Assembly: GCA_038087875.1 (NCBI GenBank)
Contig: CM075991.1
Span: 2,914,001 to 2,978,000 of the forward strand
Direction: 5' to 3'
Source: Malacoraja senta
Lineage: Eukaryota
DNA length: 64,000 bases
The translations under genes were made by a program, and so were the position numbers. Of the stretch, positions 5,357 to 53,338 are shown one piece after another. How positions within the stretch are numbered: position 1 is the stretch's first letter; each line of letters opens with the position of its first letter. The notes beneath the pieces are model-generated. The model was not told the DNA's origin, ran no database searches, and saw only the letters and a list, made by a program, of their open reading frames with translations.

Positions 5357-5425
5357 TTATACTTTCCAGTCCAAGTGTCCTCTGAATTTGGCTACTGTAT
5401 CTGCCTCAATTACTTCTTCTGGCAG

Positions 5426-5610
5426 GTAGATAAAATTGCTGGAGGAACTCAGCGGGTGAGGCAGCATCAATGGAGCGAAGGAATAGGTGACGTTTCGGGT
5501 CTCGAAAGGTCACCTATTCCTTCGCTCCATAGATGCTGCCTCATCCGCTGAGTTCCTCCAGCATTTTTATCTACCTTCGATTTTTCCAGCATCTGCAGTT
5601 CCTTCTTAAA
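5426..5610. mobile_element. Fold-back Penelope pseudo-LTR palindrome
   Basis: About 75-bp inverted arms. TSD tacttcttctggcag at 5411-5425 and 5611-5625. Confidence 0.85.
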
Positions 5611-6457: not shown

Positions 6458-7108
6458 AGGGCCTGTCCCACTTGGCCGTCATTTACGCGACAGGCCGGTA
6501 GTGACTGATGCGCGACGGTCCCGCGCGTCATCATGCGCCCGCTCAGCCGTCTGGAGCGCGTGATGTCATTTGAAGATGGACACAAAATGCAGGAGTAACT
6601 CAGCGGGACCGGCAGCATCTCTGGAGAGAAGGAATGGATGATGTTTCGGGTCGAGACTCTTCTTCAGTCTGAAGAAGGGTCTCGACCCGAAACATCATCC
6701 ATTGCTTCTCTCCAGAGATGCTGCCGGTCCCGCTGAGTTACTCCTGCATTTTTTGTCTATCTCCAATCATCTTGACCCCGCTCTGGGAGTAGGAGTGGGG
6801 GCGGATCCAGATCCGCAACGGCCGTGAGCCCCAGGCCGAGCTTGGCGAGCGTTTGCCTCGTTCTGCTGCTGTTGGAGGTGAGACATTGCGCTGCGCCAGG
6901 GTCTTGGGCCTGTCTCACTTTGACCGTCAGTTACACGACAGGCCGGTGGCGCGCGAAGATTTAGTACGGGACAAAGTCCACATTCCTCCACGCCACTCCA
7001 TGTGCCCGTCCCGTGCTACCTACACGCTACCCACACGCTACCCACACGCAACCCCACATGCTAGCAGGTCGCGTAAATGGCTTGCGAAAAAGGCCAAGTG
7101 GGGCAGGC
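6458..7108. mobile_element. Harbinger-type MITE composite containing a Penelope palindrome (about 6578-6765), inserted in CR1
   Basis: taa|AGGGCCTGTCCCACTTGGCC at left, eroded right TIR ggccaagtggggcaggcc, and an extra TIR-like copy at about 6906. Confidence 0.7.
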
Positions 7109-8604: not shown

Positions 8605-8627
8605 GTCAGTAGGACAAAGGATATGAA

Positions 8628-8719
8628 GGTACACAAAAATGCAGGAGAAACTCAGCGGGTGCAGCAGCATCTATGGAGCGAAGGAAATAGGCAACGTTTC
8701 GGGCCGAAACCCTTCTTCA
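8628..8719 (-). mobile_element. Penelope pseudo-LTR unit with an intact minimal hammerhead motif
   Basis: Minus strand reads CUGAAGA-A-GGGU-UUCG-GCCC-GAAA-CG-UU (8720-8693). TSD gacaaaggatatgaa at 8613-8627 and 8720-8734. Confidence 0.8.
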
Positions 8720-8737
8720 GACAAAGGATATGAATGC

Positions 8738-9320
8738 CTTGGTTCATTTGCACCTACTCTGACCTCATCTACTGCATTCAGAGCTCCCGATGTGGCCTTC
8801 TTTACATCGGCGAGACAAAATGTAGACTACGTACGCACAGTCTGCCACCTTACCCCTACCCCCATCACCTTCCACCTATATTCCTTCTTCTGGCTTCACA
8901 ATTTGCACTTCTTCTAACCTTATCTCACACTTTTTCTCTTTTCATCCCTGGCCTTTGTCCAACCATCTTCCCATCCACCCCACCCCCCCCTCCCCCACAT
9001 GTATCCACCTATCACTTGTCAAACTTTGTCCCACCCTCGCCTTCCCCCCCCCGCCCCCGGCACTCCCACCACCCTCACCCCCACCACAATCAGTCTGAAG
9101 AATCTGTAAGGTACACAGAAATGCTGGAGAAACTCAGCGGGTGCAGCAGCATCTATGGAGCGAAGGAAATAGGCAACGTTTCAGGCCGAAACCCTTCTTC
9201 AGACTCTGATGAATCTGTAATGTCACTTATCCATGTTCTCCAGAGTTGCTGTGTTACTCAAGCACTTTGTGTCTATTTTTGTAAACTACCATCTGCAGTT
9301 CCTGGTATCTACATTTGAAT
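8738..9320 (+). mobile_element. Decayed Penelope-like fragment with a nested inverted pseudo-LTR (9110-9204)
   Basis: FICTYSDLIYCIQSSRCGLLYIGETK motif. The nested unit is flanked by tctga(a/t)gaatctgtaa at 9094-9109 and 9205-9220. Confidence 0.75.
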
Positions 9321-11763: not shown

Positions 11764-12029
11764 GTGAGTCAATATTTCTTGGTGGGAGTGAGGCTACTCG
11801 GCCCACCGGGTCCAGGCTTGCAACAAACGCAGCTCTTTAGGTATCCTTCCCCCCAAACTTTATATTTGACTTCTTCCTGCCTGGTCTCACACGGTGTCTC
11901 CTTTTCTCCTAACCTTTGCCACTTCCACTTCCACTAATCAAAACCCCCTCACCTGCATGTGTAGGAAAGAACTGCAGATGCTTGTTTAAATCGGCGGTAG
12001 ACCTTTTGGGACCTAAGTGACCACAGTTC

Positions 12030-13550
12030 GATTATGTTTAAGATAGTCATGGATCGGGACGGAGACGGGCACGTGTTAAAATGCTCAAGTTTGCTGACGA
12101 AAGCTCAGGATATGTACGTCCCCGTTAGAGTGAAGGACAAAGCAGGCAAACGTAAGGAAGCTTGGCTGACGAGGAAAATTGGTGGGAACTATAGGCCGGT
12201 GAGCTTAACATCTGTAGTTGGAAAGTTACCAGAGAGTATTCTGAGGGATAGGTTATACAGGCATTTGGACGGGCAAGGGCTGATTAGGGATAGTCAGCAT
12301 GGTTTTGTCCGTGGACGGTCGTGTCTCACAAATCTGATTGATTTTTTTGAAGACGTGAGCAAAATGGTTGATGAAGGCAGAGCTGTAGATGTTGTGTACA
12401 TGGACTTTAGTAAGGCATTCGACAAGGTTCCGCATGGTAGGCTGCTCTGGAAGGTTAGATCGCATGGGATCCAAGGAGAGATAGCTGAATGTTTAGCAAA
12501 TTGGCTCCATGGAAGGAAGCAGAGGGTGATGGTGGAAGGTTGCTCTCGGACTGGAGGCCTGTGACTCGTCGTGTGCCACAGGGTTCGGTGCTGGGCCCGT
12601 TACTGTTTGTCATCTACATCAATGATTTGGATGAGAACATACAGGGCAAGATTTGCAAGTTTGCTGATGATACAAAAGTTAGTGGGTTTGCAGATAGTGA
12701 AGATGGTTGTGAAAGATTGCAGCAGGATCTGGATCGATTGGCCAGGTGGGCGGAAGAATGGTTGATGGAATTTAATACAGAGAAATGTGAGGTGTTGCAT
12801 TTTGGGACGTCGAACAAGGGCAGGACCAATACAGTGAATGGTAGTCCTCTGGGTAGTGTTGAAGAACAGAGGGATCTAGGAGTACAGGTGCATGGTACCT
12901 TGAAGGTTGAGTCACAGATAGATAAGGTGGTCAAAAAGGCTTTTGGCACTTTGTCCTTCATCAGTCAGAGTATAGAAGTTGTGAGGTCATGTTGCAGTTC
13001 GATAAGACGTTGGTGAGACTGCATCTAGAATATTGTGTTCAGTTCTGAGCACCATGTTATAGGAAAGATATTGTCAAGCTTGAAAGGGTTCAGAAAAGAT
13101 TTACGAGGATGTTGCCAGGACTAGAGGGTGTGAGCTATAGGGAGAGGTTGAGTAGGCTGGAGCGCAGGAGGATGAGAATTGATCTTATAGACATGTACAA
13201 AATGATGAGATGAATCGATCGGGTAGATGCACTGAGTCTCTTGCCCAGAGTAGGGGAATCGAGGACCAGAGGACATAGGGTGAAGGGGAAAAGATTTAAT
13301 AGGAATCTGAGGGGTAACTTTTTCACACAAAGGGTGGTGGGTGTGTGGAACAAGCTGCCAGAGGAGGTAGTTGAGGCTGGGATTATCCCATCGTTTAAGA
13401 AACCGTTAGACAGGTACATAGAGAGGACAGGTTTGGAGGGATATGGACCAAGTGCAGGCAAGTGGGACTAGTGTAGCTGGGACATTGTTGGTTGGTATGG
13501 GCAAGTTGGCCGGAGGGCCTGTTTCCACACTGTATCACTCTATGACTCTA
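12030..13550 (+). mobile_element. CR1 LINE RT fragment with 3' end, frameshifted
   Basis: NYRPVSLTSVVGK, YMDFSKAFDKVPH, VPQGSVLGP, FADD and RGNFFTQRVV motifs. Tail gggcctgtttccacactgtatcactctatg. Confidence 0.93.
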
Positions 13551-13928
13551 GACACAAAATGCTGGAGTAACTCAGCGGGACCAGCAGCATCACTGGAGAG
13601 AAGGAATGGGTGATGACCCGAAACGTCATCCATTCCTTCTCTCCAGAGATGCTGCCTGTCCCGCTGAGTTACTCCAGCATTTTATGTCTACCTCACCTGT
13701 ATCCACCTATCACTTGCCAGGCTTTGTTCAGCCCGCACCTCTCTTTTCCAGCTTTTCCCATCTATTCCATCATTCTTAAGAAGGGTACTGACCCGAAACT
13801 TTGTCTGTACATTTCCCTTCCACAGATGCTGACTGACATGCTGAGTTGCTCCAGCGCTTTGTATTTTGCTTAGGATTCCGGTATCTGCAGTCTCTTATAT
13901 TTCTAATTCTATGGTGTTGTAAGCAAGA

Positions 13929-16855: not shown

Positions 16856-17653
16856 TGTTTAAGAAGGAACTGCAGATGCTGGAAAATCGAAGGTACACAA
16901 AATGCTGGAGGAACTCAGCGGGTGCAGCAGCATCTATGGAGCGAAGGAAATAGGCAACGTTTCGGGCCGAAACCCTTCTTCAGACTGATAGGGGGTGGGG
17001 GGGCGGGTGGGCGGGGAGAAGAAAGGAAAAAGGAGGAGAAGCCCGAGGGCTGAGGGAGAGATAGGAAGGGAGGAGACAGCAGGGGCTAGCAAAATAGGAA
17101 GAATTCAATGTTCATGCCCCCAGGATGCAGACTCCCCAAGCGGAATATGAGGTGCTGTTCCTCCAATATCCGGTGTTGCTCGCTCTGGCCATGGAGACCC
17201 AGGACAGAGAGGTCGGATACGGAATGGGAGGGGGAGTTGAAGTGCTGAGCCACCGGGAGGTCAGGTTGGTTTTTGCGGACCGAGCGGGGGTGTTCGGCGA
17301 AACGGTCGCCAATCCTTCTCTTGGTCTCACCGATGTAGATCTGCGACAGAGGTTCACCTGCATCTCCTCCAACCTCATCTATTGCATCCGCTGCTCTAGA
17401 TGTCAGCTGATCTACATCGTTGAGACCAAGCGAAGGCTTGCCGATCGTTTCGCATTGAATTCTCCCTATTTTGCTAGCCCCTGCTGTCTCCTCCCCTTCC
17501 TTTCTCTCCCTCAGCCCTCTGGCTCCTCCTCCTCCTTTTACCTTTCTTCTCCCCATCAGTCAGAAGAAGGGTTTCGGCCCGAAACGTTGCCTATTTCCTT
17601 CGCTCCATAGATGCTGCTGCACCCGCTGAGTTTCTCCAGCATTTTTGTGTACC
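16856..17653. mobile_element. Penelope-like element: inverted (fold-back) insertion of the GIY-YIG 3' end plus pseudo-LTRs
   Basis: Minus arm encodes IYIGETKRRIGDRFAEH...VAQHFN...EEQHLIFRLGSLHPGGMNIEF. Plus arm encodes NLIYCIRCSRCQLIYIVETKRRL. TSD ttatatcacctgtag at 16841-16855 and 17654-17668. Confidence 0.9.
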
Positions 17654-18553
17654 TTATATCACCTGTAGGTTCCCTTCCAAGCTGCAATCAATCCTGACTT
17701 GGAAATCAATAGACGTTCCTTTGTCTTTGGGTGTCTTTGCAGACTCCCCATCCAATGGTATTAACCAAATCTTAACCAAGAGTCTTCACTGCAGGATTTT
17801 GTGGTCTTCTGGAAATCAAAATAGAACAGGATGGCATAGGGGCGCAGAGGTAGAGATACTGCCTTACAGCGCATGAGACCCAGGTTCGATTCTGACTACA
17901 GGTATTGTCTGTATGGAGTTAATACATTTTCCCCGTGACCACGTGGGTTTTCTCCGGATGCTCCAATTTCCTCCCACATTCCAAAGACGTGCAGGTTTGT
18001 ACGTTAATTAGTTTCTGTAAATTGTCCCTATTGTGTAGGGGAGAACTAGTGTATGAATGATCATTGGTTGGCACAGACTCGCTGGGCCGAAAGGCTTGTT
18101 TCCACACTGGATCTCTAAACCAAACTAAACATAGAACATAGAATACAGCACAGGAACAGGTCTGCAGCCCACAATGTCTGTGCCAAGTTCAACTAACCTC
18201 CTCTGCCTACATGTGATCCACATCTCTCCTTTGCTTGCTTATCTTAAAGCCTACTAAATGGCATTTTCCTATCTGACTCCACCTCCAGGCATTCACCATT
18301 CTCTGTGTAAAAAACATGTACAGCAAGTTTTAAAATTTGCCTCTCTCATTTTAAAGTTATGCCCTCTAGTCTTCGACATCTCTGCCCTGGGGAAAGGATT
18401 CTGACTGTTTCCACTATAGTGACGGAATTCCAAGAGTTAATCTCAGAAAAGATCCTGGAATTTATGCCTTGGTAGGCAGGCGGTTTGATTAATTGAATTT
18501 GAAGACAGCACCTGCCACATCTCGAGGATTAATAATTTTGTGTTTACCGACAG

Positions 18554-18687
18554 GGCCTTTTCTTGGAGGTGCTGTTGTCAAAACGATTGGGTTCCAATGG
18601 CTGATGTCCATCATCGGAGCCATCAACATTTGCTATTCTCCACTCTGTTTCATCCTAAGGAACCCACCCGTCAATGAAGAGAAAATG
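18554..18687 (+). CDS. SLC18A1: VMAT1-like coding exon (TM12), 134 bp
   Basis: acag|GG CCT...AAA ATG|gtaatc. Translates [44 protein letters not shown]. Confidence 0.94.
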
Positions 18688-18734
18688 GTAATCAATGTTA
18701 AAAGGTCTTTGGCTTTCGGTGATGGATGGAGTCA

Positions 18735-19345
18735 GGGGTGGAGACTGGGGTCAGTCTGGAGTGGGGTGGGAGGAGTGGGGTGGGGAGAGTGACGGGTGAG
18801 GGATGGGGTGATGAAGAGTGAAGAAAAGTGGGGTGGGGTGCTGAGCATTGGGAGGGGAGAGCATCCGGGTGGTGAGAGGCGAGATGGTGAGGGATAAGAT
18901 GATGAGGAGTGGTGGGGTGGGGAGGAGTGGGCTGGTGAGTGATGAGGTGGGGAGGGGGTGAGGTGGTGAAGAGAGGGAGGGTAGAGGTGTGGGGTAGTGA
19001 CGAATCAAGTGGTGAGGAGTACGGTGCTGGGGAATGGGAGGGGAGGGGAGGGGAGTGAGGGGATGATGAGTGGTGGTGAGGAGTGAGGGGGTGAGGAGTA
19101 AGGGTTGTGAGGAGGAAGGGCTGGTGAGGAGGGGGTGGTGAGGAGTGAGAACAAGGGGTGAGGAATAGGGTGACAAGTGGGGGGGTGGGGAGTGGAAGGG
19201 GAGAGGAGTGAGGTGATGAGGAGTGAGCTGGTGAAGAGTAATGTGGTGAAGTGGAAGTTGAGAGTAGAACAGTGAGGAGAGGAGTATTGGGGAGTGGGCT
19301 GTGAGGAGTGGGAGGGGAGAGGGTAATTAGAAAAGGAAGCAGGTA
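18735..19345 (+). repeat. G/purine-rich low-complexity tract
   Basis: About 600 bp of GGTGAGGAG/GGGGTG-like units with very few C on the + strand. Confidence 0.9.
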
Positions 19346-22188
19346 AGGATCATGAACTGGTATATTCAAGATTTAGTGAAAGGATAAGACAACTTTGGGA
19401 GATGGTGTGTATGGTAGGAAGCACTGAACCTTGAGCACGATCAGAACAGAACAGTACAGCACAGGAACAGGCCACTCGGCCCACTATTTCTGTACCAATC
19501 ATGATGCCGCGGTAAAGTAATCTCCTCTGCCAGCACATGATCCATTTCCCTCCATTCGCTGCATATCCATGTGCCTATGTAAAAGCCTATTAAATACTAC
19601 AATAGTATCTGCCTCCACCACCACCCCAGGCACCCACCACTCTCTGTGTAAAAACCTTGACCCACACGCCTTCTTTAAACTTTGCCCCTCTCAGTTAAAT
19701 GCCTCTAGTCTTTGACATTTCCAGCTTGGGAAAAGGGGTCTACCCAATCTATGCCTCTCATAATTTTACATCCGGCGGTACGGTGGCGCAGCGGTTGAGT
19801 TACTGCTGGTTCGATGACCCAGGTTCGATCCCGACTACGGGCGCTGTCTGTACGAAGTTTGTCCGTTCTCCCTGTGACCGCGTGGGATTTCTCCGTGAGC
19901 TTCGGTTTTCTCCCACACTCCAATCGGCTTGGTATAGATGTAAAATTGCCCTTAGTGTGAATGATAGCGTTAGTGTGCGGGGATCACTGGTTAGCACGGA
20001 CTCAGTGGGCCAAACGGTCTGTTTCCGCGCTGTATCTCTGAACTAAACTACCTGGATTAGAGTGCATTTGCTATAAGGAGAGGTGGATACATTTTTTTTA
20101 ATAGAATGCCAGAGGTAGAGGAGAGATCTGATAGATGTTTTAGTTTTAGTAACCAGAGCTCCCAGAGAAAACCCACACAGTCATGTGGAGAAAGTACAAA
20201 CTCTGTATAAACAGCACCCGTAGTCAGGATCAAACCCGGGTCTGTGGAGCTGTAAGGCAGCAACTCTACCACTGCGCCACTGCGCCACCCCTCTTCCAGT
20301 AAATTATGCACTGGGATTGAGCGAAGGGTTGTGAACATTAAGTAAAAGGAGACAATGAATTCATTGGATTCCTTGGCAATAGACTGGAAATGGATGGGCC
20401 TCTACAGTTTTGATACCTCAACAGTCCAATTCGCACAGTTAGAGTCATAGTCATCGAGCACGGTCACAGGCCCTTCTGCGTTTGGACCATATCCTTCTAG
20501 ATCTTTCCTATCCATGTACCTGCTCATGTGTCTTAAATGTTATTATAGTGCCTGCCTCAACTACTTCCTCTGGCAGCTCATTCCCTGTATCCAGCACCCT
20601 CTGAGTGAAAAACTTGCCTTCCCTTCTCACCTTAAACCGATGTCCTCTGTTTCTTGATTCCTCTACCGTGGGAAAATAAATTCTGTGCATTCACCCTACC
20701 TACAGTACTCCCCTCAATATTTTATACACATATATAAGATCTCGGCTTCCAGCGCTCCAAGGAAGAAATTCTCAGCCTTCCCAACCTCTCATTATAGCTC
20801 AGACCCTCAAGCCTTGGCACCATCCTCGTGAGGCTTTGCACAATAACTTTGTCCAAGTAATGTCAAAACATGCACTACATGCGACCAATGTCATCTGCAT
20901 GGTTCATGTGCATCCTACAGATGACCCAGAACAAATCCTTGAAACTAAGATAGACACAAAATGCTGGAGTTACTCAGCGGGACAGGCAGCATCTTTGGAG
21001 AGAAGGAATGGATGACGTTTCAGGTCAAGACCTTTCTTCAGACTGATGTCAGGGGATTGGGTGGTACATCGATAAGGAAGTGCAAGGTGTGAAAACAGGA
21101 CAAAGGGAATGGAGAAGTCTTTGAAGTCCTTAAGCTGTTGTGCCTCTGCAATAACGTTTTTTTGACTAAATTCAACCATATAACACAGTGCTGAGCTGAA
21201 AATTGAACTGTAGCCAATATTGAGTTATTCATTACTGTTTCTGAGACGCTTGTACATGGTGCACTTGTTAACTTGGATTCTAAAAGTATTGTCTGTAAAA
21301 CGCTCTAGGGTGGGGGGGGGGGCGGGGTGCTGGGATAGTAAACATGTTATAGAAATACTCAGTTGAGCACCTGCTTCATTGTACCAGAGACCAGGCTTCA
21401 ATCCTGACCTTGGGTGCTGGCTATGTGGAGTTCACACGCTCACCTTGAGAGTTCCCTCTGGTTTTCTCCCACATAACAAGGACATGCGGGTTTATAGATT
21501 AATCGGCCCTCTTTAAATTGCCTTTGGTGTGTATAGAGTGGATGGGAGAATGGGATAACATAGAGCTAGTAAGAACGTCCGGTCACTGATTGGTGTGAAC
21601 TCAGTGGGCCGAAGGGCCTGTTTCCATGCTGTATCTCTAAACTAAACCAAATGTCCTTATTTTCAAGAAGGAGCAAATCTAGACGATTACAGTGTCTGAA
21701 ACTCTGTGTGTGTAGTATTGATGTATGGCCACTTAAAAAATCCCTACTTTAGGAATTAACCAATTTGTTTAAAATGGATTAATAATGTCATCAAACTATG
21801 GGGTAAAGAGGTTTCAGGGATTGTCAAGTATTTGTGCGCTAATAATGGACAATATCATGAGTGGGGTAGAGAGGGTAAATGCAGAGTCTTTTACCCAGAG
21901 TGGAGGAATCAAGAACCAGAAGATAGAGGAAAGATTTAATAGGAATTGAGGTGCAACTTTTTCCACAGAGGTTGATGGGTGATCAGAATGACCTGCCAGG
22001 AGGTAGTTGAGGCAGATACTATAACAACATTTAAAAGACTTGGACAGGTACATAGATAGGAATATGGGCCATATGCGGGCAGATGGACTAGCTAAGATGA
22101 GGCATCTCAGTTAGCATGAGCAAGTTGGACTGAAGGCCTGTTTCCATGCTGTATGACTCTATGCCTAATATCTACTCTTTAAATACTA

Positions 22189-22410
22189 GGTAGGCAAAAA
22201 TGCTGGAGAAACTCAGCGGGTGAGGCAGCATCTATGGAGCGAAGGAAATAGGCAATGTTTCGGGTTGAGAGCCATCTTCGGACCTGAAGAAGAGTCTCGA
22301 CCCGAAATGTTGCATATTTCCTTCGCTCCATAGATGCTGCCTCACCCGCTGAGTTTCTCCAGCATTTTTGTCTACCTTCGATTTTCCAGCATCTGCAGTT
22401 CCTTCTTAAA
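22189..22410. mobile_element. Fold-back Penelope pseudo-LTR palindrome
   Basis: About 80-bp inverted arms. TSD ctctttaaatacta at 22175-22188 and 22411-22424. Confidence 0.85.
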
Positions 22411-23605: not shown

Positions 23606-26600
23606 GAATGTCTTCTCACTTTGTTGTGCTCTTCTTCAGTATTTACTACATACTCCAAGGTGCCATGTTCTGAGCCCACGTTTTGAACAATAACTTTATT
23701 GTTAATTTCTGTGCAACAACCTTTCCCACCGTTTCTTGTGAGCACCCGGCATTAACTCCTAATCTTTGTTTTGCAGCCAGCTGTCCAACTATTCTGCTAT
23801 TTGCTCCACATAATATTTTTTCAACAACCCTTTTGAAAATCATGTCTGTCTATCTTCTACTATGTCTGTCTATCTTTTCAAATAGGGCCTCCCTTCTTCA
23901 TGCCCATAAGACATATGAGCAGAATTAGGCCATTCAGCCAATCGAGTCTGCTCCACCATTTTGATCACGGATCATCTATTTTTCCCTCTCAACCCCATTC
24001 TACTGACTTCTCCCCATGACCTTTGATGCCGTTACTCAGCAAGAACCTATCAATCTCCACTTTAAAAACACCCAATGATTTGGCCGGCCATGGCAATGAA
24101 TTCCACGGATTCATCACCTTCTGGCTAAAGAAATTCCTCCTCATCTCCATTTTGAAATTTTGCAACCAACTTTTATTTGACTTTAGCTGGTGTTGTACTA
24201 CATAGAACATCGAACAGTACAGCAGAGAAACAGGCCCTTCAGCCCACAACGTCTGCGCTGAACATGATGCCAAGATGAACCAATTTCCTCAGCCTATACA
24301 TGAATGAATGAATACTTTATTGTCACGTGTAAAAAGTCACAGTGAAAATCTTTGCTTGCATACCCAAGTCGCCGCATACAGAGCGTTTACAAAGTTACAA
24401 AGTACCCCAGCGTTAAGTCCCCCTTTGTTCTCCCCCCTCCCCCTCCCACGCAACAGTCCCCCCTCGCCTGGTCCTCCATTGATCCACCACTCCATTTCCT
24501 CCATATCATTGTACAAATCTAAAAGCCTCTCAAACGTCACGATTCTATCTGCATCCACCACTATCCCTGGCAGCACGTTCCAGACACCCACTGCACTCTG
24601 TGTAAAACAACTTGCCCCACATTACTCCTTCAAACTTTACCCCTATCAAATTAAAGCTATGCCCTCTAGACTTTGGCATCCAGAGTCTGGGAGCAGGGTT
24701 CTCACCATCTACCTTGTCTATGCCTCTCACAATTTTGTAAACTTCTATCAGGTCTTCCCTCAGCTTCTGACACTCCAGAGAGAACAATCCAAGTTTGTCC
24801 AACCTTGTACTAATATCCTGTAATCCAGACAACATCCTGGTGAACCTGGTCTGCATCCTCTCCAAAGCCTCCACTACCTTCCTGTAATGGGATGACCAGA
24901 ACTGCACACAATACTCAAAACATGACTTCCTGACTCTCATATCATATACTCAATGCCCCAACCAATGAAGGCAACCGTACCATGATTCATTGGTTAGAGT
25001 TTTAGTCTTTGGTTAAAAGTTACAGTACCTGATCATGGTGAATCCACCCTGCCAAAGAGCACACGGGTTAATGGTTCAATCGTGGTTCAATGGTTTATTG
25101 TCACATCCACTGAGGTACAGTGAAATTCTTTATTGCATACAGTTCACCAAACGTATTACCATAATTAAGCAGAATCTTGGATTAAGAATGTTTATAGGAA
25201 TAGTACACTGAGTACAAGAGTCGCTAGGTTTTGCTGCCATTTTCAAGTCCAAGTTGTTGTAAGTGCAGAGTTTCTTAACCTGACTACAAAGGCCTGTTGT
25301 CTTGACAGCGTTGCAGTGTCGGCCTGGCCAAGTGAAGCTGTTGGTGTCCTTCACTGCAGCTCCACAGCTCCGTGCTACTGCAGGTCAATAGACAACAGAT
25401 AATAGACAATAGGTGCAGGAGTAGGCCATTCGGCCCTTCGAGCCAGCACCGCCATTCAATGTGATCATGGCTGATCATTTCCAATCAGTACCCCGTTCCT
25501 GCCTTCCCCCCATATCCCCTGACTTCGCTATTTTTAAGAGCCCTATCTAGCTCTCTCTTGAAAGCATCCAGAGAACCGGCCTCCACTGTCCTCTGAGCCA
25601 GAGAATTCCACAATTCCAGGTCGCATCTGGTCCGCACATTCACCAGTGAACCGTGGAAAACAAAGGAGAGAAGAACCATCTCGTGGTATTCTGTCTGCAC
25701 CAGTAATTACTGTGAAAAATAGATGCCAGATCCTAAACAACCAGGAAACAAAATACAGGAAATGTAAAATGTGTACGAAGGAACTGCAGCTGCAGGATTA
25801 AACCAAAGATAGACACAAAATGCTGGAGCGGGACAGGCAGCATCTCTGGAGAGAAGGAATGGGTGGTTTTGGGTCTCGTTTTGACCCGAAACGTCACCCA
25901 TTCCTTCTCTCCAGAGATGCTGCCTGTCCCGCTGAGTTGCTCCAGCATTTTGTATCTATCACAGGGAAGATAAACTTCCATCCCATCCATCGGAACCTCA
26001 GACAATATTTAAGAAGGTGCAAAATTGAAGGAAAAAAAGGCTGTTGCTAAAATAAGCAATGATAAAGTCACCTATTTTCAGGTGTATTTCTCCCAGGCTC
26101 CTGATTATTGAACGAAAATAATTCACGAAATTGCTCAAACTGATTAAAAATGAAGACAAATAAAGGGAGACTAATAAAGGTTCGAGTTTGCCAGGTAGAA
26201 ATTGATTGAAATTGTAAACCACTTCCTTTCGCAAATAGATACTTAGAGACATGTGCATCATGCCTGACACCTTTCATACTTAACTGATTTATTCACTTCA
26301 GCAGTGACTGTTTCAAACGACGTGGTTAAATCATGTAGAAATAAGGATCTACGGATGCTGGTTTACAAAAGATGACACAAGATGCTGGAATAACTCAGCG
26401 GATCAGTCAGCATGAATAGGTGACGTTTCAGGTTGGGATCAGTCTGAAGAAGGGTCATAACCCAAAACATCACAGATTCATGTTCTCCGGGGATGTTGCC
26501 TGACCCGCTGAGTTGCTCCAGCACTTCGTGCTTTGTTAGTTTAGTTTTTGTTTAGATTAGAGATACGGTGTGGAAACAGGCCCTTCGGTCCACCGAGTCT

Positions 26601-30239: not shown

Positions 30240-30863
30240 CGTTAAAGAAACAGTTGGACAGGTACATGGATAGGACAGGTTTGGAGGACCAAGTGCCGGC
30301 AGGTGGGACTAGTGTAGCTGGGACATGTTGGCTGGTGTGGGCAGGTTGGGCCAAAGGGCCTGTTTCCACACTGTATCACACTATGAATCTAAGGAGACAA
30401 GGTGGTGAAGGTTTTTGGCACACTGGCTTTGCTCAGTCAGGGGACTGCTAATAGACATTGGGATGATATGTTACACCTGTACAAGACGTTGACGAGGATT
30501 CACGCTGTATTACATACAATTTTGGTAACTCTGTTATAGGAACGACTAGAAAGAGTGCAAAGCAGATTTATGAGAATGTTGCAAGAACTCAAGGGCCTAA
30601 ACTGAAGTGAGAGGTTGGACTTTTTATTTTTTAGTGCAGGAGACTAAGGGTTGACCTTATAGAGGTGTATAAGAGCATGAGGGGCCTCAATGAGATGAAT
30701 TCACACCAAATCCTTTTCACAGGGTTGGGAAATCATGAACTAGAGAGCTAGAGTTTCAAGGTAAGAGGGGAAAGATTTAAAAGGGACCTGACAGGCAACT
30801 TTTTCACATAGTGGCTATCGCCAGAGGAAGTTGAGGCACATACAAAACAACATATAAAAGGCA

Positions 30864-31057
30864 CACAAAAATGCTGGAGAAACTCAGCAAGTGCAGCAGC
30901 TTCTATGGAGCGAAGGAAATAGGCAACGTTTCGGGCCGAAGGGTTTCAGCCCAAAACGTTGCCTATTTCCTTCGCTCCATAGATGCTGCTGCACCAGCTG
31001 AGTTTCTCCAGCATTTTTGTGTACCTTCGATTTTCCAGCATCTGCAGTTCCTTCTTT
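30864..31057. mobile_element. Fold-back Penelope pseudo-LTR palindrome
   Basis: Inverted arms. TSD aacaacatataaaa(a)ggca at 30846-30863 and 31058-31076. Confidence 0.8.
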
Positions 31058-32387
31058 AACAACATATAAAAAGGCATTTGGAAAGATACATGGATGGGAA
31101 AGGTTTTGAGGGATATGGGTCAAATGTGGCCAAACGGGACTAGTTTAAATGGCATCTTGGTCAGCATGGATTAGTTGGGCCGAATAGCCTGTTTCTGTGC
31201 TGTGTGACTCTTTGACTCGATGACAACAAAAAATACACGAGTGACGATGAACAATTTTAATGGTGGCATAAAACTGGATTGTCTCCATCGAACAGAGTAG
31301 ACTAATGAAGTGAAAGTTTAATAGTTTTTATTGCATTAAAAAAAATTGAGACCGCTGCAGGGAGAGTTGGTAAACAGATTGAAAATAATTGGAGAACAAT
31401 AAAAGATGATTGATTCAAACCACAGAGGGATAAGGGATCAGCTATTCATTTCCTTAAGTTTATTCTGTTCTCTACAGAAAGTTACAATTGAATTGAATTA
31501 CAATTGCTCTTTAATACAATATGTTCTATTAAACCAAACACTTGCGTTTACACCGCCAAGTCCCGGGTTCGATCCCGACTACGGGTGCCGTCTGTACAGA
31601 GTTTGTACGTTATCCCTGTGACCGCGTGGATTTTCTCCGAGATCTTCGGTTTCCTCCCACGCGGTCCCTCGTGTGTGTAGGATAGTGTTAATGTGCAGGG
31701 GATCACTGGTCAGTAGGGACTCGGTGGGCCGAAGGGCCTGTTTCCACGCTGTATCTCTAAACTAAACTAAACTAAACTTCTCAGTCTGGTCGCCCCATCA
31801 CAGGAAAGATGGGGAGTTTTTGGAAAGGGTGCAGAGGAGATTTACCAGAATGATGCCTGGATTATGGTGCTAGCTACAGGGAGAGATTGGACTGACGGAT
31901 TGTTTTCTCTAGAATGCAGGAGGTTTAGTGGAGACCTGATAGAACCATACAAACTTATGAAAGGCATAGATAGGGTAGACAGTCAAAACCCTTTCCCCAG
32001 AATGGAAATAGCAGCATTAACGAGAGAAGGGTAAAATTTAAAGGTGTGCGGGCCATGTTTTTTTATACACAGGGGTGCCTGGTGAGTGCCTGGAATGTGT
32101 TGCCATGGGTGGATATGGGGAGAAGGCAGGAGAATATGGTTGGGAGGGAGAGACAAATCAGCCATGATTGAATGGCAGAGTAGACTTGATGGGCCGAGTA
32201 GCCTAATTCTGCTCCTTTCACATAATCTTATGATCTTATGATATGCAGAGAATGGAAGAATTGGGTTATATGCAGGAAGATAAAGTGGGTCTTGGCATCT
32301 GGTTCAGCACACTTTGTGGGCCAAAGGGCCTATTCCTGCATGTTCTGTACTATGTTCTCATCTCTGGAGAGAATTTAAGATATTTAC

Positions 32388-40204: not shown

Positions 40205-43200
40205 GTCCAGTAGGAGAGCAGAGGGAACGGAGGTCTGGCCTACCCCGCCCTCATCGTTGGCTGCACCGAGCTTCAGTGCGTCCCTCAGCAGCACAGTCTG
40301 CAGCGGGCCAGTCGGCAACATTCCCCGACGGACATCTCGCTCCGCTGGGAGGTCAACAAGGCTCGGGCAGGCCAAAGAGCGTCTTTCACCGAGTTGATGA
40401 CCCTCCAGCAGCACTCGATGTCAGTCTCTGAATGTGTCCCTGTGAACAGTCCGTAAATCACAGAGTCCTCTGTGACGGAGCTGTTCAGAATAAACTGTGA
40501 CAGGGACCCTTGCAGACCTCTCCACTCTCTTTGCCAATCCACACTCTGCGAAGAGGTGGGCAACCGTCTCCTCTCCATAGCAGCCGTCCCGAGGGCAGCG
40601 TGCGCTGGTAGTAAGGTTCCGACGGTGCAGGAAGGATCAGACTGGGAGGGCTCCCCTCACCGCCAGCCAAGCCAGGTCTTGGTGCTTGTTGGTGAGTTCT
40701 GGCGATGAGGCATTTTGCCAGACAAGCTGGGCAGTCTGCTCTGGGAACCACGCCACCGGATCCATCGAGTCCTTTCCCTGCAGTGCCTGCAGGACATTCC
40801 GTGCTGACCACTGCCCAATGGACATGTGGTCAAAGGTGTTGGTCCGGAAGAACCTTTCCACAAACGACAGATGGGGCGGCAATGTCCAGCTGACTGGCAC
40901 ATTGCGTGGCATCTGCGCCAGGCCCATCCTTCGCAACACCGGGGACAGGTAGAACCTCAGCAGGTAGTGACACTTGGTGCCCACGTGCCTTGGCTCTACA
41001 CTCCGCCTGATGCAGCCACACACGAAGGTGGCCATCAGGGTGAGGGCGACGTTGGGCACGCTTTTACCCCCGTTGTCTACTGACGTACATTGTGGCCCGT
41101 CGCACCCGATCTATCCTCGACCCCCAGATGAACTGGAAGACGGCCCGGGTGATCCCTGTGGCGTAGGAGGGAGGGACAGGCCACACTTGCGCCAAGTACA
41201 GCAGCCCCGAGAGCACCTCACACCTGATGACCACATTTTCCCCCGTTATGGAGAGGGAGCGTTGCCTCCACAGCTCCAATTTCTTCCCCACCTTGGCTAT
41301 CCGCTCCAGCCAATTCTTGTCACACGCCTCAGCCCCCCCGAACCAGATCCCCAGCACCTTCAAGAAGTCAGGCTCGATGGTGAAGGGGACGGAAGATCGG
41401 TCGAGCCAGTTGCCAAAGAGCATGGCCCCGCTCTTCCTGCGGTTCACCCTGGCTCCCGTGGCCGACTCAAACTGGTCGCAGATACTAATCAGTCTGCGGA
41501 CCGACCCTGGATCCGAGCAGAAGATGGCGACATCGTCCATGTACAGGGAGGTTTTGACCTGAATGCCCCCACTGCCTGGCAATTTCACTCCTCTTATGCT
41601 CGCGTCCTTCCTGATGGACTCGGCAAAAGGTTCAATACAATAGATGAACAAGACAGGGGAGAGAGGGCAACCCTGCCTGACTCCAGACCTAATGGGGAAG
41701 CTGTCTGATTCCCACCCATTGATTTAGACTGCACTACAGATATCGGTATAGAGCAGTTGGATCCAACTTCTGATTCCTTTCCCAAATCCCATTTTGGAGA
41801 GCACGTCCCTCATGTATGTGTGCTATATCCTGTCGAAGGCCTTCTCCTGGTCCAAGTTGACTAGGCAGGCATCCACCCGTCTGTCCTGCATGTAGGCAAT
41901 GGTATCTCTCAGCAGCGCTAGGCTGTCTGAGATTTTCCTGCCAGGTACAGCACAAGTTTGGATCACCTGTCCCAGAGCAGACTTGACCCGGTTGGCGATG
42001 GCCTTAGACAGGATCTTGTAATCAACATTCAACAATGTGATGGGTCTCCAATTCCTTATGTCCTTCATCTCCCCCTTCTGCTTGTAGATTAGGGTGATGC
42101 TGCCCTTCCTCATGGACTCTGACATGCTGCCAGCTAGAAGCATGTCATTGTACACTTCCAGCAGGTCTGGGCCCACCCAGTCCCACAGAGCCAAATACAA
42201 CTCGGCCGGTAAGCCATCGCTTCCGGGAGCTTTACTCGAGTCAAAGGAACGGATGGAGCCAGTCAGCTCCTCTAGGGTCAGTGGTTGGTCCAGACTCTCC
42301 CGCTTGCTGTCCCCCAAGACCTCCGTGATAGAGGACAGGAAGTTCTGGGAGGCGGTGCTGTCTGTGGCCTTTCTGTCATACAAATCCATGTAAAAGGATT
42401 TGCAGATCCTCAGCATATCTGTCTGCGAGGATGCTACCGAGTCGTCCTCCTCCCTAAGGCTGTTCATCACAGAGCTCCCCCTGTGAACCTTATGGAAGAA
42501 GTAACGTGAGCACGTCTCATCCTGCTCCACATGGCGGACCCTGGATCGGAAGATGATCTTGGAGTATTCAGAGGTAAAGAGCTGAGCTTGCCGGCCCTTC
42601 AACTCTCTAAGTTCCTCCCTCATATCCACCCCCCTCGACTGCAGAAGGAGCAGTTGCTGCAAATCTGTCTGTGTTGACACAATTCCCTCTGACTCTGTCT
42701 TGCTCTCTGAACCCCTTTAAATATGACGAACGTCTTAATGTTCTCCTTGGTTGCTCCCACCAGAGTGTCGGGGAGTCAAAGAGGGGCTTCACCGTTCTCC
42801 AACATGCGTAGTCCCTCTTTAGCTGCTCAACGTTCTCTGGGGTCAACAGCTTCATATTTAACTTCCACGTCCCTCTCCCTGCTTTCTGGTCCTCCTGTAG
42901 GTGACAGGAAGCCTGAAGGAGGCAGTGGTCAGAAAAGAACGCATGAGGTCGGTGTGTCTGACCGTGATGGCTTTCGTCATGAAGAGGAAGTCTATCCGGG
43001 ATCGGGCTAAACCGTCCGATCTCGACCAGGTGAATCGCGACTGGGACCCGCCTGCAGGGTTGCTGAAGGCGTCGTGCAGCTTTGCGTCTTTTACTGTCTC
43101 CATCAGGAACTTGGACATGCTGTCCAGTCTGTTGTCGGCACTGCCGGATCGTCCAGCCGCATCAATGATGCAGTTGAAGTCACCGGCCAGAACGAGCTGC

Positions 43201-43205
43201 TGGGA
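40205..43205 (-). mobile_element. Tx1-like (L1 clade) LINE ORF2 fragment, frameshifted
   Basis: APE remnant FTWSRSDGLARSRIDFLF. RT motifs KAPGSDGLPAELY, NWRPITLLNVDYKILSKAIANR, LDQEKAFDR, SLYMDD. C-terminal LAWLAVRGALPV. Confidence 0.9.
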
Positions 43206-44600
43206 CTGTTGGTAAATTTCACTGTGTTAACAAGTAACATAGGTGGCAATAAAAAAAACACTATTAACTACTGGCTCCACCAGTTGTGCCTCAGTGTGCT
43301 CAGCTCCATCACTATTGTTTGCTCAGATGCAAGAGTGAGTAAGTATTTATGTTGTGGCGCCAGTTACAACTGGCTTTGCCACCATGCAAAAGGCTTTCTA
43401 GCTGGATGTAATTATACAGAAGCATGGTTAAGTATTTGATTAACACTACTGCCATCTAGAGATGAAAATATTGCATTGTTCGATGTATCAAGGCTGTGAT
43501 GCTATCCAAAGGAAAATCTTGCTAACATCAAATGAAGCACAATGATATGTCCCAAGGATCTATGCACCTAAATGAGGAAATATATATATATATATAGATA
43601 TACATATGCTGGAGCAACTCAGTGTGTCAGGTTGCATCTCTAGAGAATATGGATAGGTGATTTTTTGGGTGAGGACCTTTCTTTAGACTGATAGAGTCCC
43701 TCTCCATGTTCTCTGGGGATGCTGTCTGACCTGCTTAGTTCCTCCAGCAGTTTGTATTATTTGGTGTAAAGCAGTATCTGCAGTTCCTTTCTATATTTCT
43801 GAGAATGGTAGAAACGGTGTAACATTGGTAACAAAACTGAATGACCCCGACTCATCTTAAAGTCTGTTTTGTACAAAGAGAAGTCTTCAGCCGCTTCGCC
43901 ATTTAACTGGATCTTGGCGATTCCGTTTCTCATCTTTGTTCCTGCGTCTTTTGTTCTACTTGAGTCCTTCCTTAACATAAATCTATACAGAAACTTTTTA
44001 GGTTTAAACCTTATATTTACATTAGTGTTCAGAAGTGCTCCGTGATGGAACTACTAGTGGCCAAACTCAAGGTTTGTTAGAGTCATTGTCATACAGTGTG
44101 GAAACGGGCCCTTCGGCCCAACTTGCCCACACCGACCAACATGTTCTGTCTACACCGGCCTCTATTTGGCCCATATTCCTCTAAACCTATCCTATCCATA
44201 TACCTGTCTAAATGTTTTTACACATTGCAATAGTACCTGCCTCAACCACCTTCTCTGGAAGCTCGTTCCACACCCCCACCACCTTTTGTGTAAAAATGTT
44301 ACCCCTCAGGTTCCTATTAAATCTTTCCCTCCGCACCTTAAACCTATGTCATCTAGTTCTCGATTACACTGGACAAGAGGCTGTGTCATGATTTTGTACA
44401 CCTATATAAGATCACCCCTCATCCTCCTGAGCTCCAAGGAATAGAGTCCTAACCTGCTCAACTTCTCCCTATAGCTCAGACCCTCGAGTCCTGGCACCAT
44501 CCTCATAAATCTCTGCACCCTTTCCAGCTTGACAACATCTTTCCTACAACATGGTGCCCAAAACTGAACACGATAGTCTAAATGTGGCCTCACCTATGTC

Positions 44601-45405
44601 ACCTATTTCTCCACCGGGATCCCACCACTGGCCACATCTTCCCATCTCCTCCCCGTTCTGCTTTCCGCAGAAAAACCTCTCCCTCCATAACTCTCTGATC
44701 AATTTGTCCCTTCCCACCCAAACCACCCCCTCCCCTGGTACTTTCCCTTACAACCACAGGAAATGCTACACTTGTCGCTTTACCTCCCCTCTCAACTCCA
44801 TCCAAGGACCCAAGCAGTCTTTCCAGGTGAAGCAGAGGTTCACCTGCACCTCCTCCAACCTCATCTACTGCATCTGCTGTTCCAGGTGTCAACTTCTCTA
44901 CATCGGTGAGACCAAACGCAGGCTTGGTAATCGCTTCGCCCAACACCTCTGCTCAGTTCTCAATAACCAACCTGATCTCCCGGTGGCTCAGCACTTCAAC
45001 TCCCCCTCCCATTCCAAATCCGACCTTTCTGTCCTGGGCCTCCTCCATGGCCAGAGTGAGGCCCAGCGCAAATTGGAGGAACAGCAGCTCATATTTCGCT
45101 TGGGTATTTTACACCCCAGCGGTATGAACATTGACAATAGACAATAGACAATAGGTGCAGGAGTAGGCCATTTGGCCCTTCGAGCCAGCACTGCCATTCA
45201 ATGTGATCATGGCTGATCTTCTCCAATTCCAGCTAGTCCTTGCTTTCTCCCTCATTCCCCTCCACTTCCCAGCTCTCCCACAGCCTACTGTCTCCGCCTC
45301 TTCCTTTCTTCCCCCCCCCCCCCCAATCAGTCTGAAGAAGGGTCTCGACTGGAAACATTGCCTATTCCTTCTCTCCGCTGAGTTTCTCCAGCATTTTGTC
45401 TACCT
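44601..45405 (+). mobile_element. Penelope-like element (Neptune-type, Cys-rich linker) 3' fragment with GIY-YIG endonuclease and pseudo-LTR
   Basis: ORF 44551-45147 reads RKCYTC...FTCTSSNLIYCICCSRCQLLYIGETKRRLGNRFAQH...HFNS...GMNID. TSD tcacctatgtc at 44590-44600 and 45406-45416 within a CR1. A CR1 tail is inserted at about 45133-45218. Confidence 0.88.
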
Positions 45406-45480
45406 TCACCTATGTCTTATATAATTGCAACACACATAGTCATGTAATGTATAACATGATCTCCCAACTTCTATACTCAA

Positions 45481-45670
45481 TATGTGCTGGAAGGAACTGC
45501 AGATGCTGGTTTAAACCGAAGATAGACACATAAAGCTGGAGTAACTCAGCGGGTCATGCAGCAACTATTCGGTTGGGTCCGAAGAAGGGTCTCAACCCGA
45601 AACGTCACCTGTTCCTTCTTTCCAGAGATGCTGCCTGACCGGCTGAGTTACTCAAGCTTTTTGTGTCTAT
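45481..45670. mobile_element. Fold-back Penelope pseudo-LTR palindrome (second subfamily, GGGU-CUCR-ACCC)
   Basis: TSD cttctatactcaa at 45468-45480 and 45671-45683. Confidence 0.8.
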
Positions 45671-45798
45671 CTTCTATACTCAACGGAACTCTGACTGATG
45701 AAGGCCAATGTATGTGTTCTTTATATTCTTCTTAAGAGGAACGTTTCTCGACCTGCTAAACACCCAGATCAGATTCAACCTTATAGGTGACTTTGAAT

Positions 45799-45983
45799 GC
45801 AGACAAAAATGCTGGTGAAACTCAGCGGGTGCAGCAGCATCTATGGAGCGAAGGAAATAGGCAACGTTTCGGCCCGAAACGTTGCCTATTTCCTTCGCTC
45901 CATAGATGCTGCTGCACCCGCTGAGTTTCTCCAGCAATTTTGTCTACCTTCGATTTTCCATCATCTGCAGTTCCTTCTTAAAC
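45799..45983. mobile_element. Fold-back Penelope pseudo-LTR palindrome abutting the CpG island
   Basis: Near-perfect palindrome centred on aacgtttcggcccgaaacgtt. TSD aggtgactttgaat at 45785-45798 and 45984-45997. Confidence 0.85.
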
Positions 45984-46229
45984 AGGTGACTTTGAATACC
46001 GTGTCTCTCCGAGTTCGGTCCAACCTTGGAGGCAGCCGTCGCTAGGGCCGTTGCTAAGGCGCTGAGGGAGCTGCGCCTCCCAAGTTAAGCCCCGGAACTA
46101 AAGTGCGAGCCGAACGTGTCAGGGGGGTTCGGAGAGGCGGGGACACGGAGCGCGTTGGCGGGGTCCGCGGAATATCCGGTCCGCGCCGGGGCAAGGCTGG
46201 GCGGGGATTTCCGCTGGGTCTGTTTTTTC

Positions 46230-50190: not shown

Positions 50191-50760
50191 TGAAGCCCAG
50201 TGTGCCAATAGCCTTATTCACCGCCCTAATTACTGTGTTGATACTCAATACTCTGATGAAGGCCAATGTACTGAAAGTTGTCTTGACCACCCTATCTACA
50301 TGTAGCACCACTTTCAAGGAACTGTGTACCTGTCTACTCCTAGATTCTTCTGCATTACAACATTCCCCAGGGCCCTGCCATTTACTGGGATGTTCCTACC
50401 CTGGTTTGATGTCCCAAAATACAACACCTTGCACTTACCTATATTCAATTCCATTAACCATTCCTCAGCCTACTTGCCCAGCTGATCAAGATCCTGCTGT
50501 AATTTTTGGCAACCATCGTTGCCACCTACAACACCACCCACTTTAGAATAATCTGCAAACGTAATACTCGTGCCTTCTACATTCTTATCCAAATGGCTGA
50601 TAAAAATTACAAACAGCATTGGGCCTAGCACTGATCCCTGAGACACACCACCAGTCACATGCCTCCAGTCTGAAAACAACCACCTGTCTGAAGAAGGATC
50701 TCGACCCGAAACGTCGCCTATTTCCTTCGCTCCATAGATGCTGCCGCACCCGCTGAGTTT

Positions 50761-53020: not shown

Positions 53021-53338
53021 TCCAGCATTTTTGTCTACCCTCCCTCTACTTCCTTTCATGAAGCCAATTTTTCTATCCAGCTTTCTTCTGTTAGTAAAAT
53101 TTGAGAATTAGTAAAATATTCTATTCTACCCGTTGTATTTCTTCTTCCTCTAAAGTTGTCTCCAAAAATGTCCATTTTGTAGGGCCATTGATCTGATAAG
53201 TTGCGATATGCGTATGATAACCTTGTACACTTCTTCCCTCCTGCTTGTTACACTGCTTCGGGGCACAACAACAAAATAATGCTTTCTTTTTCCCAGGTTA
53301 AATATGAATTACTGATTGCAAGTTAAAGGAAAGACACC

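Follow-up and report, generated by a model that had tools for sequence, protein, structure and literature searches.

A 64,000-nt stretch of the skate Malacoraja senta genome (GenBank assembly GCA_038087875.1, contig CM075991.1, positions 2,914,001 to 2,978,000; hereafter the window) is strewn with short repeats that carry a minimal type I hammerhead motif, in most copies damaged. This raises the question of whether the motifs are working ribozymes and how the copies that carry them arose. The kind of hammerhead is already known, having first been described in 2014 (Cervera and De la Pena, PMC4209133); as a ribozyme discovery the locus carries little weight, and its useful part is a fossil record of insertions. 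Many dated insertions mark where reverse transcription ended, around the ribozyme and away from its cut site. We consider it probable that the units are the ends of a Neptune-type Penelope-like element (PLE) that amplified in waves, left behind as dead-on-arrival copies of uncleaved RNA. The results to retain are the map of junctions and the weakening of the ribozyme from older to younger groups, both obtained from one window and with one junction confirmed in public contigs.

The repeat family and its parent element

The repeat unit is a ~105-bp pseudo-LTR with an optional ~35-bp tail. A profile built from 15 window copies recovered 50 pseudo-LTR arms (E ≤0.01) between positions 1086 and 62359, and none in the reversed window. 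The arms form 35 loci covering 4,183 bases (6.5% of the window); two of these loci are both ends of one insertion, and one consists of two nested insertions. Further single arms lie at 1086, 1997, 7744, 13767, 15593, 32812, 36612, 39214, 47062, 48387, 48645 and 60955. The initial annotation placed the units directly after GIY-YIG open reading frames (ORFs), which does not hold as a general rule, because endonuclease remnants are present at only four loci: 8734–8830 (+), 17104–17454 (folded back), 44533–45144 (+) and 49597–50107 (−). At these loci the core lies ~100 to 350 nt downstream of the remnant; the hammerhead at 16983 follows the endonuclease end by ~100 nt, and those at 45332, 49254 and 9095 are placed similarly. 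The other loci (~30) are solo or palindromic ends.

The four endonuclease-bearing loci show the anatomy of the parent element (the sequence groups are described below; C3 is the first base of the core). At 16856–17655 (−), a whole 5′-truncated insertion contains, in order, an inverted pseudo-LTR (17551–17655, + strand, core U4>A), a fold-back within the GIY-YIG region, the endonuclease end, the 3′ UTR, a pseudo-LTR with an intact hammerhead (16983–16956) and the tail; its target duplication measures 15 bp. The truncated element at 44609–45407 (+) comprises a linker and GIY-YIG ORF remnant, a SINE-like insertion, a 3′ UTR and a damaged pseudo-LTR (C3 at 45332). A group B truncated element at 49157–50109 (−) retains a CX4CxxC linker, a frameshifted GIY-YIG domain and a pseudo-LTR with C3 at 49254, and carries a younger group A solo (49360–49460) in its 3′ UTR. 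The older truncated element at 8734–9279 (+) holds the GIY-YIG remnant 8734–8830, a pyrimidine-rich 3′ UTR and a pseudo-LTR from 9095, in whose hammerhead a younger unit has inserted.

The 44533 frame matches the Pfam GIY-YIG family (PF01541, E 5.9e-5), and the window endonuclease has a CxxC between both GIY-YIG motifs and an H..H downstream (CCHH). Its nearest named relatives are proteins of two skates (78% and 74%), followed by those of sharks and a ray. One relative, P0003, is 65% identical over the endonuclease and joins a reverse transcriptase (RT), with an RVT_1 match below the cut-off, to a C-terminal GIY-YIG endonuclease. The CX4CxxC linker is present in the 50107 frame and intact in P0001 and P0003; its first cysteine is mutated in the 44533 ORF. 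A CX2-5CxxC linker before the endonuclease is described for Neptune, Nematis and Naiad elements and as absent from Penelope/Poseidon (PMC8557442). The parent thus appears to be a Neptune-type, endonuclease-bearing PLE; the clade assignment draws on the linker motif and the C-terminal endonuclease of P0003, since the 64-kb window contains no RT of this element.

The preponderance of solo and palindromic ends over endonuclease-bearing loci, their sharp ends and their target duplications could also be read as those of a self-propagating non-autonomous element, SINE-like or retrozyme-like, moving through its own short or circular RNA. Non-LTR retrozymes are likewise short and protein-free, carry type I hammerheads and are derived from pseudo-LTRs (Cervera and De la Pena 2020, PMC7229834); a recent preprint also derives retrozymes from pseudo-LTRs and reports them in the one chondrichthyan sampled (Li et al. 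2026, 10.64898/2026.07.22.740005). Retrozymes, however, form head-to-tail arrays with a ribozyme in each unit (PMC7229834), whereas the skate units are solo or head-to-head and mostly broken: none of the 35 loci is a head-to-tail array, and no permuted monomers cut at +29 were seen among them. Moreover, every group has members with an upstream UTR or ORF (16983, 49254, 21041, 9095 and 60955), so the solos track autonomous lineages. We therefore regard independent propagation of the unit as improbable and favour ends of an autonomous PLE.

Beyond the window, a 261-base stretch of the youngest unit had at least half of its words in 14 of the 23 listed runs, labelled as seven organisms; four RNA runs with shares of 0.08–0.12 were left out of the contig comparison below. 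The suggestion of a very large number of relics in the genome is plausible, although most relics are broken. Minimal hammerheads are reported from fish Xena, Poseidon and Neptune elements, with counts of ~4,000 for coelacanth and ~9,000 for Xenopus (PMC4209133), more than 6,000 type I motifs are reported in a coral (PMC7229834), and PLEs are expanded in the whale shark (10.1101/443036). Skate or shark was not found in the available text and two supplements of PMC4209133. Our literature search, thin on subscription journals, found no paper on this skate family, which may already be catalogued in repeat databases.

Three annotated skate and ray proteins (P0001, P0002 and P0006) join a host-like N terminus to this endonuclease, as exonised fragments or gene-model artefacts. 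The window also holds several other features. A VMAT/SLC18A-like exon lies at 18493–18792 (+; E 3.6e-16 against solved VMAT1), and TTI2-like exons at 53327–54034, 56266–56877 and 61064–61372 (+), the third recognized by eye only. Large LINE remnants at 51202–53034 (−), 41064–43226 (−) and 12001–13016 (+), with family names assigned by eye, include a CR1/L2-like RT remnant (E 2.4e-32 for Pfam RVT_1) as well as an L1/Tx1-like RT preceded by an endonuclease (E 1.3e-9 for RVT_1). A ~90-bp high-copy repeat resembling a SINE or LINE end, with short tandem heads, occurs at 45140–45215 and in many other places (~15 further matches).

The hammerhead core and its relatives

We numbered positions from C3 of CUGAAGA (+1), which places stem II at +9..+20, GAAA at +21..+24, N17 at +28 and the predicted cut between +28 and +29. 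As originally described, 8720–8693 (−) and 16983–16956 (−) read directly as CUGAAGA-A-GGGU(UUCG)GCCC-GAAA-CG-UU; they are the only two exact matches to the core and stem pattern, which had none in 100 shuffles. A general descriptor (CUGANGA, stem ≥4 bp, GAAA) found five sites, 6669 (+), 8720 (−), 9202 (−), 16983 (−) and 21041 (−), against a shuffle mean of 0.12 (maximum 2), and its strict form four sites against 0.02. The earlier figure of about 25 copies stands for remnants, 24 of the 50 arms spanning +1..+28, but not for intact motifs: five of those 24 (8720−, 9202−, 16983−, 21041− and 50688+) keep all 13 core bases, four of them with all four stem II pairs. Core damage falls mostly at CpG sites. 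The extra base between A9 and G10.1 is A in 27 of 28 arms, position 10.1 is G in 24 of 28, and 11.1, a CpG site, is C in 31 of 41. Stem II is fully pairable (4/4) in half of the spanning arms (12/24); at N17, 44 of 44 arms carry C or U and none carries G. The ACGU palindrome (15.2–16.2, no loop 3) is present in the A, A2 and B consensus sequences and is often CpG-decayed in single copies.

Stem I has 2 bp, a 2×2 internal loop and 2–3 bp in copies that bear upstream UTR, and 2 bp only in solos. The group A core at 8693–8720 (−; 13/13 core bases, 4-bp stem II, GUU) belongs to a tailless solo pseudo-LTR at 8625–8722 (−), which lies at the start of the older endonuclease remnant with a 5′ end at −2 and a 15-bp target duplication; because this duplication overlaps −2..+1 and the sequence upstream of it is host DNA, its stem I is limited to 2 bp. 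A second group A solo at 9110–9206 (−; C3 at 9202, core 13/13) has a 5′ end at −3 and an exact 10-bp target duplication. These two units, 482 nt apart, are the only nearby same-strand pair of intact cores, and they are independent solos, each with a 2-bp stem I. Besides the core at 16983, the other fully preserved cores belong to a group B pseudo-LTR with upstream UTR at 20943–21050 (−; GUC, A-U at the base of stem II) and to a group A2 solo at 50686–50760 (+; stem II 3/4), the 3′ end of which is cut by a later insertion. Three copies had been cited as variants of a second subfamily; its CUCG/GUC consensus is real, but no copy in the window matches it exactly, and the three are each damaged: 6669 has G16.2>A, with loss of the ACGU palindrome, 45579 has U4>C, and 50688, which falls in the intermediate group A2, shows an A-C mismatch in stem II.

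A minimal type I hammerhead in a Penelope pseudo-LTR, with ACGU in place of stem III, is nonetheless supported by the sequence, the GIY-YIG/CCHH remnants, the tail, the inverted copy, the duplications and comparison with PMC4209133. The minimal hammerheads described there share the type I order, CUGANGA/GAAA, an extra base between 9 and 10.1, G10.1-C11.1 and a palindromic 15.2–16.2 with no loop 3, and they too sit in pseudo-LTRs, mostly as single truncated copies, some close together on opposite strands. Stem II has 4 bp in the skate family and 7–8 in Schistosoma; stem I, interrupted as above, compares with 4–5 bp in Schistosoma and 2 bp in D. virilis (PMC4209133).

A rival reading is a chance hammerhead resemblance, amplified by transposition; one ancestral sequence copied many times counts as one observation. 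Also in favour of chance, stem I is poor, and no Rfam hammerhead covariance model matched the window (E ≤10). This silence is uninformative, because the same models missed six of six relatives whose stems pair well (E ≤5). We searched metagenome contigs with the 21 core letters as a pattern, which gave at least 123 stretches in at least 121 loci, in AT-rich DNA. Matches to the window endonuclease were listed at 28 of 121 loci, in 26 cases upstream on the same strand at 87–159 nt; 15 of the 56 listed loci with at least 500 nt of upstream sequence had a same-strand upstream endonuclease, and reversed controls had none. Among the matches listed, N17, which lay outside the search pattern, is G in one of 61 distinct variants. 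Stem I pairs 1–5 are Watson–Crick in 50, 50, 47, 30 and 32 of these 61 variants, against shuffle means of 43, 27, 23, 22 and 18 (the shuffle ignores relatedness), with C-G/U-A/G-C swaps. The same core behind homologous endonucleases in distant hosts, covarying stem I pairs and adherence to the NUH rule at positions outside the selection make chance very improbable, and that reading is already largely refuted. By these sequence relationships, namely the core behind a homologous endonuclease, the stem I pairing and the rarity of G at N17, the window motif is a hammerhead by descent, with a stem I much weaker than in related elements.

Several look-alikes were set aside. CUGAUGA...GAAA motifs at 50253–50276 (+) and 45694 (+) are, by eye, antisense of a common LINE body and not of this family; their stem pairs over 2 bp only, and they were treated as chance. 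Rfam miRNA-like matches below the gathering score are the long palindromes. A search for endonuclease relatives in viral contigs gave 22 pattern matches, none confirmed. A hint, and no more, comes from the shark protein P0005: back-translated, its read-through end (...LMKGLRPKRQ...) would fit a CUGAUGA hammerhead that follows the ORF.

Insertion ends and head-to-head junctions

To locate the 5′ ends, we aligned each arm locally to seven window copies with upstream sequence, chosen by us as references. Arm starts cluster around the ribozyme, with 35 of 50 at −8..+27; these counts come from one window, and the two arms of a palindrome are non-independent. Six arms start upstream of −8, 16 at −8..−1, six at +1..+8, 12 at +9..+20, one at +21..+27, one at +28..+31 and eight beyond +31. 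A few arms among the −8..+8 starts (60955, 15593) carry diverged UTR when aligned to the second-best reference. The single arm near the cut site (32866) is old and starts at +24 by eye, and none of the nine group A arms starts at +29. Copies of cleaved RNA would measure ~70–105 nt and may be under-detected, yet starts as far in as +43 to +66 do occur among the arms.

Target duplications of 13–15 bp flank seven loci (5411/5611, 8613/8720, 22174/22410, 30846/31058, 45468/45671, 45785/45984 and 16841/17654) and duplications of 9–10 bp flank two (54187/54388 and 9100/9211); because such duplications flank the young solos and palindromes, we take these to be primary insertions. Fourteen loci are short head-to-head pairs; a long pair, at 16856–17655, turns back within the ORF. 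Ten of the short pairs (11 as judged by eye) have both arm starts inside −8..+27, and most of the 14 joints fall on the ribozyme's own inverted repeats. In young pairs the ~35-bp tail is present on one arm only.

Three joints have the form TCAG-N-CTGA (6668, 22283 and 47569). The first is the centre, at the ribozyme 5′ edge, of a group B palindrome (6570–6766); the second, also centred at the 5′ edge, belongs to a group A2 palindrome (22183–22410) with one tailed arm and a 15-bp duplication; and the third lies in a group C palindrome (47502–47659). Three further joints fall in stem II (5500, 25877 and 62273), in a group A2 palindrome with one tailed arm and a 15-bp duplication (5422–5610), a group B palindrome (25770–25961) and an older pair (62192–62359). 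The joint GTTTCGG-C-CCGAAAC occurs at 45871, in a group A palindrome with one tailed arm and a 14-bp duplication (45795–45984), and at 54313, in a palindrome with one tailed arm and a 9-bp duplication between the TTI2-like exons (54201–54388). The remaining pairs comprise a group A palindrome with arm starts at +13/+6, one tailed arm and a 14-bp duplication (30855–31058), a group B palindrome joined between stem II and GUC (13548–13695), two older group C pairs (26340–26538 and 43596–43789), a pair with a 13-bp duplication that includes the 45579 variant (45468–45677) and an old pair (46739–46894).

The ends were compared with assembled contigs from four public runs (X1, X8, X11 and X15, the last an RNA run by guess only), with 65,494–118,950 contigs compared in each of the three large runs. 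Loose 3′ ends were found at 16856 in 425, 467, 459 and 16 contigs of the four runs, and at 16899 in 517, 444, 590 and 25, so that both 3′ ends recur in all four runs, with AT-rich flanks. The GTTTCGG/CCGAAAC fold-back is also present in contigs, marked by a loose end at 16973 that leads into the sense arm; among the rows listed, it appears in 84 contigs of X1 and 89 of X11 and is absent for X8 and X15. The joint table also lists 16973–16977 joined to 16943–16946. Contig depth, which is not a copy number, is far higher in pseudo-LTR bins than in ORF bins.

Because arms start around the ribozyme, with about one in 50 near the cleavage site, and palindromes join at its inverted repeats, we infer that the copies were made from uncleaved RNA and that the ribozyme stems supplied the complementarity for head-to-head joining. 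In the proposed mechanism, a master element would carry the inherited minimal type I hammerhead in its pseudo-LTR, and the genomic copies would be its dead-on-arrival by-products. The element's protein would nick AT-rich DNA 13–15 bp apart, and reverse transcription would begin from either of two positions on the pseudo-LTR RNA, giving copies with or without the tail. Copying of ~100–140 nt of uncleaved RNA, ending in or just upstream of the ribozyme, would leave solo units. Two copies from the two nicks, or one copy folding back, would join head to head at the ribozyme's short inverted repeats and produce ~200-bp palindromes with one tail. The anatomy, duplications, two 3′ ends, 5′-end and junction positions and decay are observed directly; the priming steps and any catalytic activity are what this model would add.

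The anole Poseidon element PAc is among the nearest known counterparts: its hammerhead lies in the pseudo-LTR, its targets are AT-rich, and its tail is delimited by two RT start sites, to which we liken the two 3′ ends seen here (Frangieh et al. 2024, PMC11167929). In that system no RNA ends lie at the cleavage site, uncleaved RNA is the main substrate, and both strands are cut and extended. The activity of PAc was measured, whereas the skate family is known here from its sequence. The PAc ORF runs from stem II, unlike the skate family, in which no start frame common to A and B was found; a start codon in the pseudo-LTR, considered as a conserved ORF start, was rejected, the frame being open through the tail in A and meeting stops in B (by eye). 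In Adineta vaga PLEs, too, the 5′ pseudo-LTR is inverted, and the inverted junction carries palindromes (Arkhipova et al. 2013, PMC3846280). There, head-to-head palindromes were put down to self-priming on an antisense template, which is compatible with our data. An optional 30–40-bp tail at one end, solo pseudo-LTRs and 8–10-bp target duplications are described for these and related PLEs (PMC3846280; Craig et al. 2021, PMC8557442), but solo ends there often have no duplications and were explained by recombination or deletion, whereas the young skate solos and palindromes have duplications of 9–15 bp. A tie between junctions and the ribozyme was not found in the available text of these two sources, and our search, with the same thin coverage, returned no paper on junctions that map to the ribozyme.

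Related elements in other hosts (L028, L060 and L120) also contain head-to-head pairs, with the joint 10–25 nt upstream of the core. Within the window, young units are nested in older family copies, exactly inside a hammerhead (9095–9220), at the 5′ end of that same older element (8625–8722) and in the 3′ UTR of 49157–50109; a preference of insertion for the family's own copies is possible.

Sequence groups, folding and the role of the ribozyme

The initial annotation recognized two subfamilies. Consensus building from the 43 arms with enough downstream sequence (seven were left out) gave at least four groups: A (nine arms, 1.8% from consensus), A2 (seven arms, 4.5%), B (12 arms, 4.5% for 11 of them) and an older, heterogeneous C (15 arms, 15%). 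The tree of these arms is poorly resolved, with one starred branch of 39 and 92/92 for A plus A2, and the order of the groups therefore rests on divergence. Groups C and B have GUC and a U-A pair in both stem II and stem I, A2 is mixed, and A has GUU with U-G in both stems. All four footprint differences between groups (+13, +17, +28 and +29) fall in the loop, at N17 or in a pair kept as G-U. The covariation implied earlier for stems II and I survives in part: the changes fit the fold, but both U-A to U-G changes are one-sided. Since both stem II changes also perfect the competing hairpin GTTTCGG-C-CCGAAAC, as read from the sequence, a template-switch origin would explain them as well as selection. 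With GUU, two G-U pairs and this hairpin, the ribozyme is, on these sequence features, weakest in the youngest group.

Folding predictions give stem II a probability of 0.86–0.97 in two of the five copies examined when the RNA ends at +24. In group A, however, the competing hairpin prevails once +28 is made (0.77–0.99), and in all five copies pairing with the downstream pyrimidines abolishes stem II by +41. For RNA that extends to the triplet or further, the minimum-energy prediction is in no case the hammerhead. A double hammerhead is predicted at −4.1, −3.3, +4.7, +1.4 and +13.9 kcal/mol for five window copies whose two-strand minima lie at −17 to −31; for four hand-picked relatives with a 4–5-bp stem I it lies at −14 to −24, against minima of −24 to −37. 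The double hammerhead is thus 21–30 kcal/mol above the minimum in window copies and 7–13 in relatives, of which only the contrast counts, as the program ignores core tertiary contacts. On these models unaided cleavage looks unlikely, and the motif may be catalytically dead even in master elements.

The statement that a palindromic stem III lets such motifs cleave as dimers proved too strong. One Schistosoma motif showed no monomer cleavage and low dimer or trimer cleavage (PMC4209133), and in the anole the motif requires the element's protein for cleavage and is dispensable for in vitro insertion (PMC11167929). By analogy with these relatives, the skate master ribozyme would at best be a weak two-copy cutter, ACGU pairing with ACGU, and cleavage would probably occur only with the element's protein holding its shape. 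The role of the Penelope hammerhead is described as still open (PMC8557442), and four age-ordered variants are now available for a side-by-side comparison.

Two readings of that role compete, and we hold neither with confidence. The ribozyme may be active and needed in the masters, processing tandem precursor RNA as dimers, with subfamily changes filtered for function. The benign placement of the four footprint differences fits this, as does a core consensus that is identical from the oldest to the youngest group except for one CpG site, decayed in C. Non-CpG core columns have a majority identity of 0.96 against 0.86 downstream (Mann–Whitney p = 0.01), although this test leans toward the core, arm starts having been set by eye where matching began. 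With CpG columns included, the core falls to 0.91 (p = 0.09), and the distal block +61..+84 also reaches 0.91; the core is therefore among the best-kept parts of the unit, but not uniquely so. The energetic penalty of the double hammerhead and the near absence of copies starting at the cut site also speak against an active ribozyme, which we consider unlikely, though far from negligible.

Alternatively, the motif may be vestigial, kept as a promoter or protein-binding sequence, with the upstream TCAGT as a transcription start that sets the 5′ ends of solos. The stepwise weakening from C and B through A2 to A, the dominance of the competing hairpin in group A and the 16 arm starts at −8..−1 agree with this, and TCAGTCT ahead of the core matches what we take to be the initiator consensus. 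The Penelope promoter is reported to lie in the pseudo-LTR and to include an initiator (PMC2377424; Inr-like TCACT, PMC3846280), and Naiad elements thrive without a ribozyme (PMC8557442). Nevertheless, the youngest consensus still keeps all 13 core positions, the group order has the weakness noted above, and the TCAGT spot also reads as a splice acceptor (a pyrimidine tract, then CAG). In addition, U17 is common in listed relatives (35/61), including those with strong stems, so GUU by itself is not decay. A vestigial motif thus remains a tentative proposal, about as doubtful as an active one, and copying of uncleaved RNA from an autonomous PLE, our preferred account of the units, carries more weight than either.

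A joint reading, speculative and in our judgement rather unlikely as a whole, is that the hammerhead turned from an RNA cutter into a structural boundary of insertion. Transcription would start at TCAGT ahead of the core, giving a 5′ copy that lacks stem I; the ribozyme's inverted repeats would provide the joint for head-to-head cDNAs; and the hairpin gained by the youngest group would both block the active fold and have become a new joint. If so, skate genomes would be filled with ~80–100-bp perfect hairpins, many in introns, and C, B, A2 and A would form a natural series in which to study the purpose of the Penelope ribozyme.

Three smaller observations concern the same sequences. The near-perfect palindrome at 54201–54388, between TTI2-like exons, would fold, once transcribed into pre-mRNA, as a long double-stranded hairpin. 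A pyrimidine tract followed by ATCAG/T lies just ahead of the core at 16984–17020 (−) and 45300–45331 (+), and these sites presumably fit both splice-acceptor and initiator-like consensus motifs. In D. virilis, an intron is reported to end at helix I (PMC4209133). Finally, the solo at 9203–9206 (−) begins with GAGT where the consensus has CAGT, and in this one case an additional G before AGT would be consistent with copying of a cap.
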